From the IMG/VR virus record IMGVR_UViG_3300026026_000012, positions 1 to 31,231 of that record: DNA of 31,231 bases. The stretch is one strand, 5' to 3'. The notes beneath the pieces were generated by a model, which was not told where the DNA came from, made no database searches, and saw only the letters and a list, made by a program, of their open reading frames with translations. Positions 1,184 to 12,740 of this stretch are shown piece after piece. Both the position numbers and the translations under genes were made by a program. This DNA is from a virus (Duplodnaviria; Caudoviricetes). Each line of letters opens with the position of its first letter. Positions within the stretch are counted from its first letter, which is position 1.

Positions 1184-1345
1184 ATGAAGAAGTCCGACCG
1201 CGAGGCGCTGCGGAAGCGCATCGAGCGCAACGACTGGGATGCAAGCAACGATGGCGTGTACAAATTGGTCTCCCGCGAGGTAGACCGAGCCGTCCGTAGT
1301 GCGCGCCTCAGACGCGTCGTGCTTCCGAAGGGCGGTGGCAAGTGA
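1184..1345 (+). CDS. Small basic hypothetical protein (53 aa, MKKSDREALRKRIERNDW...VVLPKGGGK)
   Basis: AGGAGGTG SD at 1171-1178, ATG 1184, TGA 1343-1345; too short for the ORF track. Confidence 0.7.
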   Translation: MKKSDREALRKRIERNDWDASNDGVYKLVSREVDRAVRSARLRRVVLPKGGGK

Positions 1346-1404
1346 CCAGAAGATGCTGGTGGGCCAGCAGGAGACCCACGTGGCGCCTCGCGGGTGGTAC
1401 ATGA
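1342..1404 (+). CDS. Possible 20-aa coupling peptide (MTRRCWWASRRPTWRLAGGT)
   Basis: GTGA overlap with the upstream stop and ATGA overlap with the csf1 start. Confidence 0.3.
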   Translation: MTRRCWWASRRPTWRLAGGT

Positions 1405-2381
1405 ACGCAGCTACGATGATCTGGAATGCAGCGGGGCGCCCCGTGGTGGAAGGCGTACAGAACGTCTCGGCCGCGTGTTACCTGTGTGGCTCGGTAGCGA
1501 CCGGAATGCTGTCGAAGGCAAAAGTGCTCACGCCCACATTCACGGGCCACAGCGACGCGAAGGCGCTGTCTAGCTCATGGGTATGTGTCCCATGCTCGTG
1601 GTCGCTGAACGATGCGAGCGCTGTCGTGGGGCGCGACAGCGGCAAGTGGCGGAACTTCTCTCACGCTGTCGCCGAAGGGAAGTGGCTGACATTCACGAAA
1701 AAGGTAGAGGAGCGCCGTCGACTGTCCGCGCTGCTCTGCGCGCCGCCCTCGGGGCCATGGTGCGCGGTGGTAGCCGAGAGCGGTCAGAAGCAGCTGGCCT
1801 ATCGAGCGCCGGTGAACCACAGCGCGCATCGGTGCTCGGTGCAGTTCGAGGAGCAGCGGGTTGTCTACCAGCCGGCAGCCATGCGCTCATTGCTCGGGCG
1901 CATGGAGCGGATGCTGACCGTGTTCAGCAAGACTGAGGTGGCGAGCGGTGACTGGGACACGCGAAGGATCGGGCTCTATGGATGTGAGCGATTTGCAGCC
2001 GATGCCGAGGAGATGCGCCAACTGCGCGGATCGGCGCTGTTCTCATTGGCGATGTTCTTGGCCGCAAGGCCGGATGATGAAGGAAAGGACGAAAATGATG
2101 GAACGAACGGACCTGAGAGCGAAAGCGGTGAACCTGATAGGGGCCATCTGGTCGACGGTGGACCACGAATCGTGGGCGAAGCAGCGCCTGGAGATCTGGC
2201 GCATCTTCCAGGAGAACATCGAGGCGAGCGCGTCGACTACGCCGGACCTAGCGAGGTTCATCAACTCTCTCTCTTCGGCGATGCGATCGACTCCGGCCAG
2301 CCGGGAAGCGTCGGCGGTGGCGATCGCGGAGTGCGTGGCGGCCGAGTGGGCGGGAAGACTGCTGGACCTGATGCGGGATGA
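1401..2381 (+). CDS. csf1: Type IV CRISPR-associated Csf1 (Cas8-like large subunit)
   Basis: Zn-finger pairs CYLC and WVCVPC, KWRNFSH, PPSGPWCAVVAESGQKQL, VQFEEQ, FSKTEV, LRGSALFSLAMFLA; first gene of the csf cluster. Alternative start GTG 1380. Confidence 0.85.
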   Translation: MNAATMIWNAAGRPVVEGVQNVSAACYLCGSVATGMLSKAKVLTPTFTGHSDAKALSSSWVCVPCSWSLNDASAVVGRDSGKWRNFSHAVAEGKWLTFTKKVEERRRLSALLCAPPSGPWCAVVAESGQKQLAYRAPVNHSAHRCSVQFEEQRVVYQPAAMRSLLGRMERMLTVFSKTEVASGDWDTRRIGLYGCERFAADAEEMRQLRGSALFSLAMFLAARPDDEGKDENDGTNGPESESGEPDRGHLVDGGPRIVGEAAPGDLAHLPGEHRGERVDYAGPSEVHQLSLFGDAIDSGQPGSVGGGDRGVRGGRVGGKTAGPDAG

Positions 2382-2487
2382 ATCTGCGACCGTGGTAGCG
2401 ATGCTCCGCGTGCGCCAGCAGGAGGCAAAAGAAGCGCGAGAGGTGTACGAATCTCGCGTAAACTCTGACCGAGTGGAGGCTTGCTGA
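2095..2487 (+). CDS. cas11: Type IV-B small subunit Cas11-like, all-helical (130 aa)
   Basis: AAAGGA SD before ATG 2095/2098; position between csf1 and csf2; IWRIFQENIEASASTTPDLARFINSL and LLDLMRDE; stop overlaps the csf2 start. Confidence 0.75.
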   Translation: MMERTDLRAKAVNLIGAIWSTVDHESWAKQRLEIWRIFQENIEASASTTPDLARFINSLSSAMRSTPASREASAVAIAECVAAEWAGRLLDLMRDESATVVAMLRVRQQEAKEAREVYESRVNSDRVEAC

Positions 2488-3473
2488 TGATGGACACGAA
2501 AAACTATCGATACGAGGGAACCATCACGGCCATGTCGTCGATCGCCCATGGTGGCGAAACGAAGAGCACGACCCAGATCCTGCGACGTGAGAAGGTGGTG
2601 GCGCCTGACGGTAGCGTGGTCAGCATCCCGATCTACTCGGGGAACGCAATGCGCGGCATCCTACGCGACTGCGGGATGAGGTTCATGCTCCGCTGCCTCG
2701 GCGATCCCGAGTTGTCCATCGGGGCGCTGCACTTCCTGTTCTCGGGCGGCTCGCTGACTGGCAAGCCGATGGCAGGCGAGAAGGGCGCGAAGAAGCTCGG
2801 TGAGTCCACTAGCTCCGTTCCTATCGGGGATGCTCGCGAGCTGATGAGGGCGATCCCGCTGGTCGGCGTGTTTGGCGGAGCATGCGGCTCGATGATCATG
2901 GAGGGAAAGCTTCAGGTCGGCAAGGCGGTGCCCATCTGCCACGAGGCCGAGCGATTGATCCCGGCCAAGTTCAGACCATCATCGACGCTCACCATCTGGG
3001 AGTACCTGCAGACCGAGGCGTATACCAGGCGGGACGACTCCAAACGCGAGGAGATGCGCTCCCTGCTTGGAGCCGATGACCGGAAGCTGCTCGACTCCGC
3101 GCAATCGAAGTCCAGGCAGAAGACCATCACCGAGCAGCCCGACCAAGACGTCGGTCAGCACCAGCAGATGCGCTACCACGTCCAGACGTTCGCGGCGGGG
3201 ACGCGATTCTACTGGTGGCTCGCCCTCCGGGCCGCGACCGATCTCGAGTTCGAGGCCATGGCGTCGTGCCTGGTCGAGTTCGCTCGGTCGCCCGCGATCG
3301 GAGGCAAGACGGCGGCCGGCCACGGCCAGATCGAAATCAAGCTGGATGGCTGGTCCGAGATCGGGACTGCGGCGGTGCAGACCGATGCCATCGGCGCCCC
3401 GCTGGGAAAGGCGTACGCCGACCACCTCACCGTGAACAAGGACGCGATCGTCAAGCTGCTCGGGAGGATTTGA
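2487..3473 (+). CDS. csf2: Type IV CRISPR-associated Csf2 (Cas7-family RAMP backbone)
   Basis: ITAMSSIAHGGE, IPIYSGNAMRGILRD, LFSGGSL, PLVGVFGG, GKLQVG, YTRRDD, QMRY...AGTRF, and Gly-rich loop IGGKTAAGHG. Confidence 0.93.
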   Translation: MMDTKNYRYEGTITAMSSIAHGGETKSTTQILRREKVVAPDGSVVSIPIYSGNAMRGILRDCGMRFMLRCLGDPELSIGALHFLFSGGSLTGKPMAGEKGAKKLGESTSSVPIGDARELMRAIPLVGVFGGACGSMIMEGKLQVGKAVPICHEAERLIPAKFRPSSTLTIWEYLQTEAYTRRDDSKREEMRSLLGADDRKLLDSAQSKSRQKTITEQPDQDVGQHQQMRYHVQTFAAGTRFYWWLALRAATDLEFEAMASCLVEFARSPAIGGKTAAGHGQIEIKLDGWSEIGTAAVQTDAIGAPLGKAYADHLTVNKDAIVKLLGRI

Positions 3474-3475
3474 GG

Positions 3476-4132
3476 ATGGACACACCGGAGACCCTGGGGA
3501 CGCCAGACCTGCGCCGGATTCTCCGGTGCGACAGAAAGACCGTGCTGAGGTGGATTCGACTTGGCAAGCTCGAGGCGACGAAAGACGAGCGTGGACGTTG
3601 GCGCGTGGCCATGGACGCAGCCGTGCGCCTGCGCAAGCAGCATGGCACCAGACGCAATGGATACGGTCCATTTGGCCCTCGGCACGGCGGTGAGTGGTAT
3701 ACGGCATCAGAGCGCGAGCTGCTGCGCTCTGAACTGTCCCACGAGGAGGTCGGGAAGCGTATCGGACGCTCGACGATGGCCGTGGAAATCCAGCGTATTC
3801 GCATGCGCCAGGGGAAGACGAGAAACCTGGACATCAAGCGCCGCGCAGCCGAGGTCCAGGAGGGGGCGGCTGGGAAGTGGTTTATCTCGCCCCACGCGGT
3901 CAAGAGATATTGCGAGCGGGTGGCGCCGGGCACGGCGTTCAAAGACGCCCTCGCGATCTTGATCGCCATGTCGGAGGAGGCGAACAAGAGAGCGCGTCGG
4001 CTGCCCAGCGGCGCACTGGAATACGATGTTCGCGGCATCCGCTGCGTGGTGGTTCCGTCGAGAAATGGCCGCAAGCTTCCGGTGTTGGTCACTGTGAAGG
4101 CGAGGAGGCCGGCATGCGCCCCATCGTCGTGA
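3476..4132 (+). CDS. Multidomain protein: excisionase/MerR-like HTH, second HTH, putative RelE/DUF4258-like C-terminal domain (218 aa)
   Basis: GGGAGG SD; ATG 2 nt after the csf2 stop; DRKTVLRWIRLGKLEATKDERGRWRV; WYTASERELL...EEVGKRIGRSTMAV; FISPHAVKRYCERV...LPVLVTVK. Confidence 0.75.
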   Translation: MDTPETLGTPDLRRILRCDRKTVLRWIRLGKLEATKDERGRWRVAMDAAVRLRKQHGTRRNGYGPFGPRHGGEWYTASERELLRSELSHEEVGKRIGRSTMAVEIQRIRMRQGKTRNLDIKRRAAEVQEGAAGKWFISPHAVKRYCERVAPGTAFKDALAILIAMSEEANKRARRLPSGALEYDVRGIRCVVVPSRNGRKLPVLVTVKARRPACAPSS

Positions 4133-4761
4133 CAGCGAAACTAGGGGGCGTCGGGGTGATGGGGGATGGGTTCTTCCCTCTCGATGGGCTGCTGTCGTAT
4201 GCGGTCCATTGCGAGATGGGCAGACCACAGGTCGAGGAGGCTCCGGCGGTCGACTGCCTGGAACGACGTGGAGAGGGTGAGGACTGGTACTATGCAGCCT
4301 CGTTCGCAGTGGCCGAATGGAAGGGAGAGGGGAAATCGTTCTGGGTGAAGCGGCCCAGGTACAGCGAGTACATCACGCGCAGTGAGGCGAAGAGTGTGAC
4401 AGTTAATAGCGGCCAGTTCAAGGGCTACAACATGCCCGTGTTCTACCTGCTCGCCGATGAGATCCGCTGGTACTGCGTTGGCGAACCGGCGCTCATCCTT
4501 GACCTGCTGAGCACGCATGTCGGAAGCGTGGGCAAGAAGCGGTCGCAGGGCTGGGGGCTGGTATCTGCGTGGACGGTAGAACCGCACGACGAGGATTGGA
4601 GCGAGGTTCGCGACGGCGTGGTAACGCGCGCGCTCCCGGCTGTGGTCGCTCGCGACCGCGGGTTGGACGGCGATCCTGGATGGTACGGCGTGAAACCTGC
4701 ATACTGGGATGTGCGCAACCAGGGAGACGTGTTCTTGCCACCTGGTAAGCCAACAACATGA
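4114..4761 (+). CDS. csf3: Type IV CRISPR-associated Csf3 (Cas5-family RAMP)
   Basis: GAGGAGG SD; MRPIVVTAKL, PLDGLL, WYYAASFA, SGQFKGYNMP, WYCVGE, VGKKRSQGWGLV, RALP, KPAYW. Confidence 0.88.
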   Translation: MRPIVVTAKLGGVGVMGDGFFPLDGLLSYAVHCEMGRPQVEEAPAVDCLERRGEGEDWYYAASFAVAEWKGEGKSFWVKRPRYSEYITRSEAKSVTVNSGQFKGYNMPVFYLLADEIRWYCVGEPALILDLLSTHVGSVGKKRSQGWGLVSAWTVEPHDEDWSEVRDGVVTRALPAVVARDRGLDGDPGWYGVKPAYWDVRNQGDVFLPPGKPTT

Positions 4762-4785
4762 ACGAGCGAAAGGAGGTGAGGGAAA

Positions 4786-4902
4786 GTGGCCAAGGGAAAA
4801 TCGATTCAGTCGACGAAGTCGAGAGGCGGAGCGGCGAAGGGGGGCAAGGGAGCGGCGGCGAGCGGCGGAGGGGGAGGATCGGGAACGGGAGGTGGGAGGT
4901 AA
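4786..4902 (+). CDS. 38-aa Gly/Lys/Ser-rich microprotein MAKGKSIQSTKSRGGAAKGGKGAAASGGGGGSGTGGGR
   Basis: AGGAGGTG at 4771-4778, 7-nt spacer, GTG 4786, TAA 4900-4902; fills the gap between csf3 and cysH. Confidence 0.75.
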   Translation: MAKGKSIQSTKSRGGAAKGGKGAAASGGGGGSGTGGGR

Positions 4903-4907
4903 ACCAT

Positions 4908-5675
4908 ATGGACGAAGGCGAGCGGGCGCTGTACCTCGCGGTCGCTCGCCTTCGGTCGCACCTGGCGAAGGTAGAGCGAGCCAAGGTGCGCATCCGTGAG
5001 GCGTTCGCGCAGAGCAAGCGTGCATACGTATCGTTCTCTGGAGGCAAGGACAGCACCGTGGTGCTGCACCTGGCGCAACAGATCCAGCTTGACGTGCTCT
5101 CTTGCTTCTACGACTCCGGGGCAGAGTTGCCGAGCACATACCAGCTCGTGCACCACGTGCAGGACCACTGGACCACCGTCTTGAGTTGGTGCCATCCAAG
5201 GCGGACCATCCTGGATATCCTGCGCGCGGTTGGGGTCGGCAGGGAGGATGCCACCGAGTGGCTGAGTGCTGGTCAGATCGCAGACGAGATCATCAAGGAT
5301 GTTGCCGAACAAGCGGCGCGCGAACTCGAGACTGACTGCTATCTCCTAGGCCTGCGGCGTGACGAATCCGACGGTCGCAAGGCGGACCTTACCAAGAGGG
5401 GCTCGCTCTACCGGATGGCCAATGGCCAGCTCCGGTGTTGCCCGATTTGGGACTGGACCGACGACGATGTGTGGGCGTATATCGTGAGCAATGCGGTCGA
5501 ATACAACGAGGCGTACGACAGGACGTCGCTGCGGCCAAGGCGTGAGATTCGCGTCTGTACGTACGCCGGGAACACGTCCGAGCGCTACGGGCGGTTCGCG
5601 TGGCTGAAGCGTGAATATCCTGACCTGTTCCGCCGGCTATCAGCAGAGTTCCGTGGGATCGCAGCGATGACGTGA
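4908..5675 (+). CDS. cysH: CysH-like / PAPS-reductase-family PP-loop protein of type IV-B loci (255 aa)
   Basis: PP-loop SFSGGKDS, LGLRRDESDGR, PIWDWTDDDVWAYI, YNEAYD; GGAGGT SD at 4895-4900; no C-terminal ECGLH. Confidence 0.9.
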   Translation: MDEGERALYLAVARLRSHLAKVERAKVRIREAFAQSKRAYVSFSGGKDSTVVLHLAQQIQLDVLSCFYDSGAELPSTYQLVHHVQDHWTTVLSWCHPRRTILDILRAVGVGREDATEWLSAGQIADEIIKDVAEQAARELETDCYLLGLRRDESDGRKADLTKRGSLYRMANGQLRCCPIWDWTDDDVWAYIVSNAVEYNEAYDRTSLRPRREIRVCTYAGNTSERYGRFAWLKREYPDLFRRLSAEFRGIAAMT

Positions 5676-5681
5676 GCGATC

Positions 5682-5718
5682 TAGTTGACGACCCGCCACC
5701 AGACGCGGCACCCTGACG
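5682..5718 (+). promoter_or_regulatory. 37-nt direct repeat copy 1, promoter-like (TTGACG-N18-CACCCT)
   Basis: TAGTTGACGACCCGCCACCAGACGCGGCACCCTGACG, 32/37 identical to 5869-5905; all mismatches fall between the putative -35 and -10. Confidence 0.65.
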
Positions 5719-5720
5719 CC

Positions 5721-5869
5721 CCTTGCGGAAACCATCCTCCCCTGGCAAGATCCTCAGTGTCTGGCTGCTAATTTTGCTTGAGGTGACGGCCTCCATGGGA
5801 GGCGAAACGTTGAGCAGATCGGTAGAGGCCCTGTGCGAGCTGTTGAGCACTCGCACAGGGCTTTTCTTT
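5721..5869 (+). ncRNA. Candidate ~150-nt structured small RNA of unknown family
   Basis: Lies between the promoter-like repeat and a terminator; stems CTTGC/GCAAG (5722-5749), CCTCAG/TTGAGG (5752-5783), GCCTCC/GGAGGC (5789-5803) plus the terminator stem; no convincing ORF. Confidence 0.5.
5828..5869 (+). terminator. Intrinsic (Rho-independent) terminator
   Basis: Perfect 12-bp stem GCCCTGTGCGAG (5828-5839) / CTCGCACAGGGC (5850-5861) followed by TTTTCTTT. Confidence 0.88.
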
Positions 5870-5905
5870 AGTTGACGCCCCGTCGCCCGACGTGGCACCC
5901 TGACG
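5869..5905 (+). promoter_or_regulatory. 37-nt direct repeat copy 2, putative promoter for packaging/late genes
   Basis: TAGTTGACGCCCCGTCGCCCGACGTGGCACCCTGACG with extended -10 TGG-CACCCT; ATG at 5908 sits at the expected +1. Confidence 0.65.
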
Positions 5906-5907
5906 GA

Positions 5908-6144
5908 ATGCAACTCTCGAGCATCCAGACGTCGGGACAAGACCGCGACCGGTACGCTCACAAGCTGTCAAGGGACGGGCTGGTAGGTACCCGGACGCGC
6001 GAGCAATCGCGGCGCCGTGAAGCAGGCCAACGCCACGCGCGAAGGGGCATCGGCTCCGAAGGGCTCGGCCACGTGGAAGAAAAAGAAGGCGCTCAACTCC
6101 ACCACGTCCAAGACGGCACCGCAGGAACCGGACTGGCTCTCTGA
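5908..6144 (+). CDS. Possible leaderless hypothetical protein (78 aa)
   Basis: ATG 6 nt after the putative -10; no recognisable motif; competing frame 6017-6565. Confidence 0.35.
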   Translation: MQLSSIQTSGQDRDRYAHKLSRDGLVGTRTREQSRRREAGQRHARRGIGSEGLGHVEEKEGAQLHHVQDGTAGTGLAL

Positions 6145-6342
6145 CCACCTCTTCAGGATTGGGTACAGGGAAGCGGAGTCCCACTTGCGTCGTGCGCCCT
6201 GGGTCGCTCACGTATTGGACTTCGTATGTTTTTGGATTTCTGTCGTAACAGAAAATACAGAAAGCACTGGACAGCACGAACAAAGAACGGTATCGATAAA
6301 ATATCCATGTCGCATCCAGGAGACGTCTCGGAAACGCCAAAG

Positions 6343-10339: not shown

Positions 10340-10453
10340 ATGCAAGGCACCGCCGTCTTTCGTCCGCCGAACTCGGCCGCGCGCGTCCCTGGTGCCTTGC
10401 AGTGCCAGGTCAGCAAGCGCGCGGCCGAGTCGGGCGGACGAAGGGTCCCATGA
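10340..10453 (+). CDS. Possible leaderless 37-aa peptide (MQGTAVFRPPNSAARVP...GGRRVP)
   Basis: Starts at the predicted +1 and ends in an ATGA overlap with the next gene. Confidence 0.35.
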   Translation: MQGTAVFRPPNSAARVPGALQCQVSKRAAESGGRRVP

Positions 10454-11130
10454 GACTGTATGCATGCTACACGCCGACGCACCTGCCGCTCGTCTCGAAC
10501 GTGTTTCTGCCGTCGCTGCCGGCTACGTGGTCGCGCAACGGGGTGGCGCTGTTCGACTCCGAGGTGGTGCTCAAGCAGTTGCCCCAGCGAACCGTAACCG
10601 GTTCCTACGGCACCGACGGATTCAATGCCACGTGCATGGACAAGGTCGACCTGATATTGGGAGCCATCGAACGCGAGCGCGAGCCGTTCCTTTACAGCGA
10701 CGTCGACGTGCGGTTCTACGGGCCCGTGGTCGACGACCTGATGGCGTGCCTCGGCGACAACGATATGGCCTGCCAGTGGGACGGCCAGGGCGGGATGTGC
10801 GCTGGGTTCATGGTCATCAGGCCGAGTGATCGGGCGTATTCGTTATGGCGTCGCGTGCGCGATGAGATGAAGAAAGGGCCGAGTCTGCACGATCAGGACA
10901 TGCTCAACTTAGGCATCAAGGATTTACTGGCCGTGGCATGCGTACCACTTCCGACGCGCTACTGGACAGTCGGGCTCGCGGGCTCCGTCTGGCGTCCTGG
11001 CCGGCCAGTGAACCCTCCCGCCGACATGTTGGTCCATCACGCGAACTGGACCATCGGAGTTGCGAACAAGCTGGCGCTGCTCGAGGCGGTGCGACTTGTG
11101 CGCGAGGGCGTGACGAAGGCAAGCTCATGA
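10450..11130 (+). CDS. Nucleotide-diphospho-sugar transferase (GT-A, Nucleotid_trans-like)
   Basis: FLYSDVDVRF (DxD), MCAGFMVIR, HDQDMLN, VHHANW. Confidence 0.85.
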   Translation: MRLYACYTPTHLPLVSNVFLPSLPATWSRNGVALFDSEVVLKQLPQRTVTGSYGTDGFNATCMDKVDLILGAIEREREPFLYSDVDVRFYGPVVDDLMACLGDNDMACQWDGQGGMCAGFMVIRPSDRAYSLWRRVRDEMKKGPSLHDQDMLNLGIKDLLAVACVPLPTRYWTVGLAGSVWRPGRPVNPPADMLVHHANWTIGVANKLALLEAVRLVREGVTKASS

Positions 11131-11985
11131 ACTTGAGGCGCGTTTTTGATCGAATCGCCGACGTCATTGACCCGGCTGTTCGGCGCCGGCACATGATAGT
11201 GGGCCAGCTCGCACGCCATCCATTGGGCGCAACGGCCGCCGCGCACCAGATTGCCAGCGATGCCGTCCGCGCATGCTGCCCGCCCCATCACCCGCTGCCG
11301 CTCGCGATCGTTCTGCAGATGTGGCGAGGCGATGCCAGGCAGGCCATGCGGCTGGCGCGGTTCATCGCCGATCTGGAGCCCACCCGGCGCTCAGACGTGG
11401 CGCTGGTGTTCGCTCGGCGGTTCGACCTGCCTCTGCTGTCCGAGATCGAAGAAACCATGCTCTACTGTGGCCACAAGTCGGCGCGAGGCCACCGGACACC
11501 CAGACGGGTGCTACGGCCTGTGGGCTGGGTCAGTCGAGGTCCTGGCCGAGCAGAGATGCGCGGCATGGCCGTACGACAACGTTCTGACCATCGAGGCTGA
11601 CGGCGTTCCCCTGCGGTGGGATTGGATCGACCAGATCAAGCGCGTGCACGCCGAGCATCTGGACAGCGGGAAGCGCATCACGGGCGTACGCATGTTCCAG
11701 GGCCAGCGTCACGTCAACGGAACGATGGCAATGCACCTGTCGTGCTGGGACGATCATCCGTCGCTTCATCGGTGCCGGGCTGGGCAACCCTGGGATTGCT
11801 TCCACGGCCAGACGCTGCTGCGTGAGTGTGGAGACCGCTCGGCCATCGTGAATCTGTATGGCGTCCAGGACGTGTCACCGTCTGTCTTTTCCATCCTTGG
11901 GCACGAACATGCGTGGCTGGCGAGTTCGAAGGATGAGAGCGCGTGGCGGTGCGCGCAGGGACTTCTGGCCGAAAGGCGACTATGA
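11127..11985 (+). pseudogene. Glycosyltransferase-like gene split by a frameshift near 11475-11480
   Basis: N-terminal half reads in the 11127 frame to ...MLYCGHK; C-terminal half in the +1 frame (SRREATGHPDG...LTIEADGVPL...HVNG...WD); ATGA overlaps at both outer ends. Confidence 0.6.
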
Positions 11986-12740
11986 CCACCATCGACTTCC
12001 TCGTTGTGACCTACCCGGCTGACTACGTTTGGCTGCGCTACCTGTTCCGATCGATCGAAAAGTACGCCACCGGGTTCCGCAAGCTGATTCTGGTCGTCGA
12101 AGAACGCGAGCCGCTACCCGATGACCTGCCCACCTACGTGGAGGTCAAGCGCTGCAGGAACTACCTGCGCCGGGGTGAGGCGCCGAGCTCTCCAGGGGAC
12201 GTGTCGGGCTACTTCGGCCAGAGCATCGAGGGCATGCGGGCGCACCAGCACAGCGACGCCGAGGTGATTTGGATCCTGGAGAGCGATTGTGTGTTCAAGC
12301 GCCCGATCGACCTGCAGAACGACCATAACTACCCAGTCGCGCGCCCGGAAATCATATGGCGACCATGGGAAGACGCCGGACCGGCGAAATGCTGGGCAGA
12401 TGCCGTGCGCGACCTCCTCCAGCACGAGCCGCCCGCCGAGTGCGGATGCTGTCTGCCGTTCATCTATCCGCGTGGACTCTATCGGGCTACGTGGGAGCAC
12501 GTTGGGGGTGAGACCGCCCTGGTCGAGGTGGTCAAAACAGGCAAGTCACTGAGCCAGTGCAACGTGATTGGAAACTACGGGCTCATACTGGAGGACATGT
12601 TGGGCGAGCAGCCAGCGTTTCGCTCGCGCCGATGCACCGCCGAGCAGATCGCCCGCCAGTGCATTCACCAGTTCTGGAGTCACGCTGGCATCAACGATCC
12701 TGCGGTTCAGTCTAAGCTGCGTGAGCTTGGGCTGTCGTAG
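11982..12740 (+). CDS. GT-A-like protein (DUF6492-like)
   Basis: IDFLVVTYPADYVWLRYLFRSI, GYFGQ, WILESDCVF, QFWSH. Confidence 0.7.
   Translation: MTTIDFLVVTYPADYVWLRYLFRSIEKYATGFRKLILVVEEREPLPDDLPTYVEVKRCRNYLRRGEAPSSPGDVSGYFGQSIEGMRAHQHSDAEVIWILESDCVFKRPIDLQNDHNYPVARPEIIWRPWEDAGPAKCWADAVRDLLQHEPPAECGCCLPFIYPRGLYRATWEHVGGETALVEVVKTGKSLSQCNVIGNYGLILEDMLGEQPAFRSRRCTAEQIARQCIHQFWSHAGINDPAVQSKLRELGLS

Follow-up and report, generated by a model that had tools for sequence, protein, structure and literature searches.

Which RNA is natural to type IV-B complexes is treated as an open question in the available text of three papers (PMC7937560, PMC8175902, PMC11656645), and the locus described here asks whether a short element lying directly behind a phage csf operon could encode it, or whether another explanation serves better. 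The window analysed, 31,231 nucleotides in length, is a linear phage contig whose plus strand carries a type IV-B operon at 1299..5675 in the order csf1, a cas11-like gene, csf2, an HTH gene, csf3 and a cysH-like gene, as assigned from profile matches and position. Matches to TIGR03114, TIGR03115 and TIGR03116 lie under the NCBIfam cut-offs yet reach E-values of 1e-13 to 1e-18, the domains PF01507 and PF12728 are also matched in the operon, and the cas11-like assignment derives from position and from tblastn matches to the equivalent slot of relatives. The cysH-like gene ends with TGA at 5673-5675 and is followed by some 630 nt without a convincing gene, and then by the genes for the small terminase, the large terminase and the portal. 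Neither a CRISPR array nor a match to any of the three Cas6 families tried was found in the contig, which is 42% complete according to CheckV, and no tRNA was found in it. As portrayed in the available text of PMC7937560 and PMC8175902, the Csf system of Mycobacterium sp. JS623 is likewise array-less and likewise comprises csf1, a cas11-like gene, csf2, csf3 and a cysH-like gene; the window differs from it in having a candidate transcription unit after cysH and an HTH gene between csf2 and csf3. The latter gene (219 aa, 3473-4132) overlaps both neighbours and has an N-terminal, excisionase-like HTH_17 domain, and tblastn gave no match to it among the other Csf2 loci fetched.

A reading of this DNA from the letters and open reading frames only (the sequence-only reading) had placed a promoter-like element 6 nt after the cysH stop, and such an element does begin there, at 5682. 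It forms the first copy of a 37-nt direct repeat on the plus strand (5682..5718), with TTGACG at 5685-5690, an 18-nt spacer, CACCCT at 5709-5714 and a predicted start at 5721. The second copy (5869..5905, plus strand), overlooked by that reading, sits directly 3' of a predicted terminator, so that the two copies bracket a 149-nt element; it comprises TTGACG at 5872-5877 and a TG-extended CACCCT at 5896-5901, with a predicted start at 5908. The copies are identical at 32 of 37 positions. All five differences fall inside the 18-nt spacer and the 19 nt of boxes and flanks are unchanged (p=0.02), a pattern to be expected were both copies maintained as promoters. The TG extension is found in copy 2 and not in copy 1, which may be the weaker promoter. 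A strict consensus scanner returned no promoter and no terminator between 5000 and 7000, which is explained by a -10 box far from TATAAT and by a terminator loop of 10 nt, above the scanner limit of 8.

Copy 2 leads into a conserved unit (unit 2; 5908..6190, plus strand) that also occurs in related phages, and it is this unit that informs the position of transcription starts. In the homologous units of L180, L181 and L182, -35-like boxes paired with -10-like boxes (the latter reading CACGTT, CACCTT and TAGGTT) end 6 nt ahead of a conserved ATG, and positional homologs of copy 2 are present in all three relatives with a visible 5' end. Given this conserved spacing between boxes and ATG in homologous units, the repeat is best read as a promoter, more specifically a predicted sigma-70-type promoter, and the start of the first unit is predicted at 5721, the +7 position of copy 1. 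With the U-tract of the terminator ending at 5869, the transcript from copy 1 is predicted by analogy to be 149 nt long (5721-5869). These are the ends given in the sequence-only reading, which thus match the transcript predicted from the duplicated promoter, the spacing in homologous units, the terminator and the lack of a coding signal.

The predicted 149-nt small RNA (RNA1; 5721..5869, plus strand) has a calculated folding energy of -64.8 kcal/mol (z -3.59, reached in none of 200 shuffles), a signal that comes from its terminator and from one long hairpin, P2. The predicted intrinsic terminator (5826..5869) consists of a 12-bp stem (5828-5839 pairing with 5850-5861), the 10-nt loop and TTTTCTTT at 5862-5869, and taken alone it has a z of -6.5 that none of 500 shuffles attained. 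P2 is imperfect and spans 5764..5825 on the plus strand, its 61 nt at 5764-5824 having a z of -3.3 (2 of 500 shuffles) and its lower stem pair probabilities of 0.63-0.99. At its apex lies GCCTCC-ATG-GGAGGC (5789-5803), followed directly by GAAAC (5804-5808), and a first TTGAGCA (5810-5816) is paired in its stem; a second TTGAGCA (5843-5849) occupies the terminator loop. The sequence-only reading, which located the apical hairpin with its GAAAC, a GGAAAC at 5727-5732 and the 12-bp terminator correctly, had described about 150 nt with three hairpins. P2 and the terminator bear this out, and the third hairpin, at the 5' end (5722..5749, plus strand) and containing GGAAAC, is no stabler than chance (z -0.22, matched by 192 of 500 shuffles); the body of RNA1 minus the terminator is also no stabler than shuffles (z -0.43). 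As a promoter-plus-terminator pair, the RNA1 cassette is the strongest across the window and three relatives. TTGAG recurs at 5778, 5810 and 5843, at spacings of 32 and 33 nt, and the first two occurrences pair with each other in P2. Self-similarity within RNA1 is not above chance, an internal duplication of two TTGAGCA-containing units being matched in 574 of 1000 shuffles.

Codon usage gives no sign that the element is translated. Two overlapping plus-strand ORFs score -0.08 and -0.24 and the minus-strand frame -0.27, compared with values of +0.11 to +0.40 in six ORFs of the window used as reference, and a stop in either plus-strand ORF can be reached only by reading through the terminator. 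Small proteins of 50 aa from 5723 and of 26 aa from 5795 were rejected on their negative codon scores, as was a minus-strand ORF of 197 aa, the frame of which ends, in three relatives, close to where unit 2 begins. The 149 nt of RNA1 thus look non-coding, and this appearance, together with the stable P2 and terminator, makes it likely that a discrete small RNA is made from the cassette.

The same terminator would also stop the csf-cysH transcript, and the element is to that extent compatible with the earlier suggestion that it is the 3' untranslated region of the operon. Taken strictly, this explanation holds that there is no functional small RNA but only a terminator and the untranslated end of the csf-cysH message, copy 1 being left over from the duplication or insertion event by which the junction arose. 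It accords with the dominance of the terminator over the body in the fold, with the negative result of the strict scanner and with the failure to find an RNA1 homolog anywhere searched. The word "just" in the original suggestion is countered by promoter copies whose differences avoid the boxes and by a P2 that is stable independently of the terminator, and we regard an untranslated end as the whole explanation as unlikely, while giving it appreciable weight.

Unit 2, by comparison, is well represented among relatives. It is matched by nhmmer in L180, L182, L181 and L170 (E 1e-59, 6e-38, 8e-38 and 3e-7, with nucleotide identities of 92, 81, 80 and 59%, respectively), the copies lying at about 1315-1590 in match orientation in L180, L181 and L182 and at 9-285 in L170, and in relatives this stretch of some 280 nt is mostly found just upstream of the small terminase gene, as it is in the window. 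The frame opened by its ATG at 5908 shows 9 synonymous against 39 non-synonymous codon changes, a codon score of -0.05 and conservation across a frameshift, all of which suggest that unit 2 is probably non-coding. It ends in a hairpin, and the RNAalifold covariation term for the unit is small (-0.83). No Rfam family matched it at E<=5, and no description was found in the literature searched, which covered few subscription journals. Unit 2 is likely to be either a non-coding RNA or a DNA element of phages that has yet to be described, and, being common to five phages and unmatched in Rfam, it may be a better RNA lead than RNA1.

Ahead of unit 2 the relatives diverge. The slot there holds an ORF of 65-67 aa in G002 and G004 and one of 190 aa in G003, and the RNA1 cassette accordingly occupies a variable slot in which relatives carry small protein genes. 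These three genomes (86, 98 and 100% complete for G002, G003 and G004, respectively) keep unit 2 and have neither csf genes nor RNA1. The complete genome, G004, has 70-72% nucleotide identity to the window over the virion module; it spans 64 kb (L256-L259) and shares this whole module with many proteins 50-85% identical, its large terminase is largely different, and the csf operon is absent from it.

The position of the cassette ahead of terS, terL and the portal gene recalls the short late leader of phage lambda, pR'-tR', in which a promoter, a short structured RNA and an intrinsic terminator precede the packaging genes. On that model, an alternative raised in the sequence-only reading, RNA1 would be a short constitutive transcript which antitermination would carry on into the packaging genes, and the order of promoter, structured RNA and terminator is indeed the same. 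The locus departs from lambda in having a second promoter copy at once after the terminator and close relatives that possess unit 2 and the terminase without the cassette, and L170 and L180 have a further -35/-10 pair past unit 2. On these grounds the leader model fares poorly, and we judge it highly improbable.

Searches for RNA1 itself were uniformly negative. The comparison with Rfam proposed in the sequence-only reading produced no match to it: no family reached its gathering cut-off across the window, and between 5500 and 6400 the only match was to mir-191 (E 7.4), outside RNA1. No homolog was found by blastn or nhmmer across the fetched loci, INPHARED and PLSDB held no match below E 2, and exact patterns in IMG/VR retrieved 13 loci for the promoter, 2 for the stem with GAAAC and 15 for a gapped P2, none of them homologous to RNA1. 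A covariance model, insensitive because it was built from a single sequence, turned up nothing credible as a homolog, whether in two sets of loci (94 sources with 984 kb and 96 sources with 902 kb) or in 150 Myxococcota genomes. Its sole non-self match below 0.01, to L083/L084 at E 6e-5, was rejected as lying on the opposite strand about 5.4 kb upstream of csf2 and lacking both P2 and the U-tail. A DNA search of Myxococcota gave matches in 8 of 401 genomes, every one short and within unit 2. With no Rfam family and no homolog found, RNA1 is so far a single example among phage promoter-small RNA-terminator units.

Whether the element belongs functionally to the csf operon was assessed against other Csf2 loci, 80 from IMG/VR and four from metagenomes. 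Removal of truncated and near-duplicate loci and of three with a mis-called operon end left 68, or 67 besides the window, and these are distant, with Csf2 28-48% identical. A scan of metagenomes for Csf2 loci recovered only the window record, a fragment thereof and two distant loci, and closer relatives are known as proteins (P0002-P0004, P0122-P0125; Csf2 71-85% and CysH 55-84% identical) encoded on contigs no longer than 9.4 kb. None of the 67 loci has a hairpin followed by GAAA(C/G) downstream of the operon or GTTGAGCA, a motif that RNA1 carries twice, within 300 nt of the operon end, and the covariance model found no credible match among them. An ORF of at least 40 aa starts at the operon end in 31 of the 67, and a promoter-plus-terminator cassette, in a scan that detects sigma-70-like boxes only, follows the operon in 4 of the 67 loci; of 225 positions drawn at random from these loci, 12 are followed by one. 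An RNA cassette behind the operon is thus not general among phage IV-B loci, which speaks against a dedicated RNA occurring universally at that position. Short structured non-coding stretches do follow a few other phage IV-B operons, namely a 74-nt promoter-terminator unit in L017 (~4460-4535), a 261-nt stretch after csf3 in L044 and one after csf3 in L002, and none is clearly similar to RNA1.

The sequence-only reading had offered the element as the missing natural RNA of the Csf complex. More specifically, RNA1 or a piece of 55-60 nt could be the natural RNA of this phage's own complex, acquired with the operon. RNA1 starts 45 nt past the cysH stop, its P2 of 61 nt is close in length to the 55-60 nt RNAs that Csf complexes bind according to the available text of PMC7937560, and a hairpin of at least 6 bp directly followed by GAAA(C/G) is rare, arising in 1 of 2000 shuffles and at no other site on either strand of the window (the background in IV-B loci is 25 sites in 1.44 Mb). 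RNA1 and csf are also present together in the window and absent together from G002, G003 and G004. This co-absence draws on four genomes, one with both features and three with neither, and it is a weak link, since what precedes unit 2 differs throughout the relatives; it keeps the Csf idea alive. Set against the idea are the lack of any equivalent in the 67 other IV-B loci, whether by motif, cassette scan or covariance model, the failure to find cas6 in this partial contig, and a GAAAC that abuts the stem and is partly paired. [quoted passage not shown]

A fuller version of the Csf reading would make RNA1 the dedicated RNA of an array-less IV-B complex particular to this lineage: it would have arrived with csf-cysH, copied the neighbouring promoter and been loaded on Csf2 as a guide or scaffold, possibly by way of host type I-B repeat handles. 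We hold this, too, to be improbable. No description of a dedicated IV-B RNA was found in the literature searched, few subscription journals being covered, and if the reading were true, subtype IV-B would have in RNA1 its first natural RNA, for which the locus offers a sharply bounded candidate.

Any resemblance of RNA1 to CRISPR repeats bears on this reading and equally on the proposal of the earlier reading that it mimics a crRNA. Cas6 cleavage typically leaves an 8-nt handle according to the available text of PMC7937560, and because GAAAC follows the stem at 0 nt, cleavage at the base of the stem would fail to give a typical repeat-derived 8-nt handle ending in GAAAC. In the predicted fold the GAA of this motif lies in an internal loop and its AC is paired. 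The motif, moreover, fits a pattern resembling the hammerhead ribozyme and is not specific to CRISPR. With no match to a repeat profile and no guide target found, the mimic proposed from the GAAAC hairpin is not supported.

A different mimicry is suggested by GTTGAGCA, which occurs twice in RNA1, at 5809 and 5842, 33 nt apart. In the available text of PMC9372919 this is the end of the Leptospira type I-B repeat, and it also ends array repeats in 5 of 301 Myxococcota genomes, all five of which encode a PF09559 Cas6. RNA1 might then be a crRNA-like decoy or regulator, comparable to Racr or Cracr, directed against a type I-B system of a Myxococcota host, its two repeat 3' handles flanking a 25-nt spacer-like stretch before the terminator. 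Weak evidence for such a host comes from the large terminase, whose top genome match by E-value is a Myxococcota bin (52% identity); a search for Csf2 in 401 Myxococcota genomes found none, and 230 spacers compared with the window and three relatives gave no near-full-length match among the matches listed. Two copies of GTTGAGCA arose in none of 2000 shuffles, a figure to be read knowing that the motif was picked after seeing the sequence and that some 8-mer was doubled in 273 of the 2000. A two-block matrix, also chosen after seeing the sequence, scores 18.3 and 15.6 in RNA1, a sum reached in none of 5000 shuffles; scores of 18.2 and 18.0 occur elsewhere in the window, nearly equalling it, and the RNA1 score is reached seven times in 346 kb of relatives.

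Comparison with whole repeats weakens the case for a type I-B mimic. Local alignments of RNA1 to the five Myxococcota repeats were equalled in 5 to 132 of 2000 shuffles, and a profile of the five full repeats did not place RNA1 among its best 15 matches. The first TTGAGCA handle is paired in P2, the second lies in the terminator loop and a repeat-like stem has a probability of 0.002, so that both handles are predicted to be unavailable and the predicted fold of RNA1 offers no Cas6-type stem-loop with a free 8-nt handle. For the spacer-like stretch, whose seed is 5818-5842, the best match in 151 kb around the five arrays, the phage's host not being among their genomes, was 9 nt long and inside ORFs, with no intergenic match; this is below the level reached by 200 of 300 random 25-mers, and a longer seed was found in none of the five genomes. 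Resemblance to CRISPR repeats, which the sequence-only reading had proposed to examine against those of the host, is weak as judged from five Myxococcota repeats.

The likeness to described viral RNAs is similarly partial. Racr solitary repeat units, as presented in the available text of PMC10651486, are likewise small non-coding units downstream of a predicted promoter in phage genomes, and they differ in that RNA1 matches, among the five repeats tested, only a 9-nt repeat end and a gapped 5' block, and lies beside cas-like genes. SRUFinder, according to the same text, requires a match to cover 50% or more of a known repeat at an identity of 90% or above, and RNA1 stays below this threshold against the five Myxococcota repeats and Rfam. 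Cracr and viral crlRNAs (bioRxiv 10.1101/2024.10.29.618823, available text) share with RNA1 a layout that can be read as repeat-like, 25-nt spacer-like and terminator; RNA1 is unlike them in that no PAM-proximal target of at least 9 nt was found in a cas promoter among the five arrays searched and in that its handle is predicted to be paired. Altogether we consider a type I-B mimic quite improbable.

The hammerhead-like pattern merits consideration in its own right, as hammerheads occur in phage intergenic regions according to the available text of PMC3088659. TGACG before and GAAAC after the 6-bp stem, with 5753-5760 able to pair with 5807-5814 beside GTC, are consistent with RNA1 being a variant or decayed type III hammerhead ribozyme, and a relaxed descriptor of this arrangement finds a match in only 2 of 3000 shuffles and in a single tile among 2722 from the genome. 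That descriptor was relaxed post hoc, the strict one (CUGANGA and GAAA core, three stems) fails, Rfam gives no match, and the forced fold costs 10 kcal/mol with a stem III probability of 0.0. Under the core numbering that we assume, position C3 is a G, which precludes the C3-G8 pair, A9 is absent and the junction is 10 nt where 7 would presumably be expected. A ribozyme is scarcely credible here.

We tentatively favour a stand-alone, non-coding small-RNA cassette of the phage, with P2 acting as a decoy in trans and the terminator insulating unit 2. Host RNA polymerase would start at copy 1, at position 5721, and make the 149-nt RNA, which is predicted to fold as one long hairpin, P2, before transcription ends at the terminator. 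By cutting read-through from csf, the terminator would give unit 2 a clean 5' end. The form of the RNA suggests, as a guess, that it acts through the 61-nt P2 as a decoy, its target being some structured-RNA-binding protein other than a Cas protein. The cassette has no IV-B-wide link by motif, adjacent ORF or cassette counts; the joint absence of csf and RNA1 from the three relatives weighs against the favoured reading, as a link to Csf would predict it too. Antisense pairing of RNA1 to unit 2 or to 10 start-codon regions was rejected, the best score being reached in 11 of 200 shuffles, which is not significant over 11 targets.

Two further features of the surrounding DNA were observed. Between the portal and the head morphogenesis gene (10402-12740) lie several genes with homologs in G002 and G004, which by eye look like glycosyltransferase-type genes. 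In four of the five phages the motif CCA(A/G)TACGTG separates unit 2 from the gene that follows it, at 6207-6218 (minus strand) in the window, 299 in L170, 38702 in G002 and 36568 and 36622 in G003, and is absent in G004. It is reversed in the window, forms an inverted pair in G003 and is also found twice within genes of the window, and is possibly an operator.
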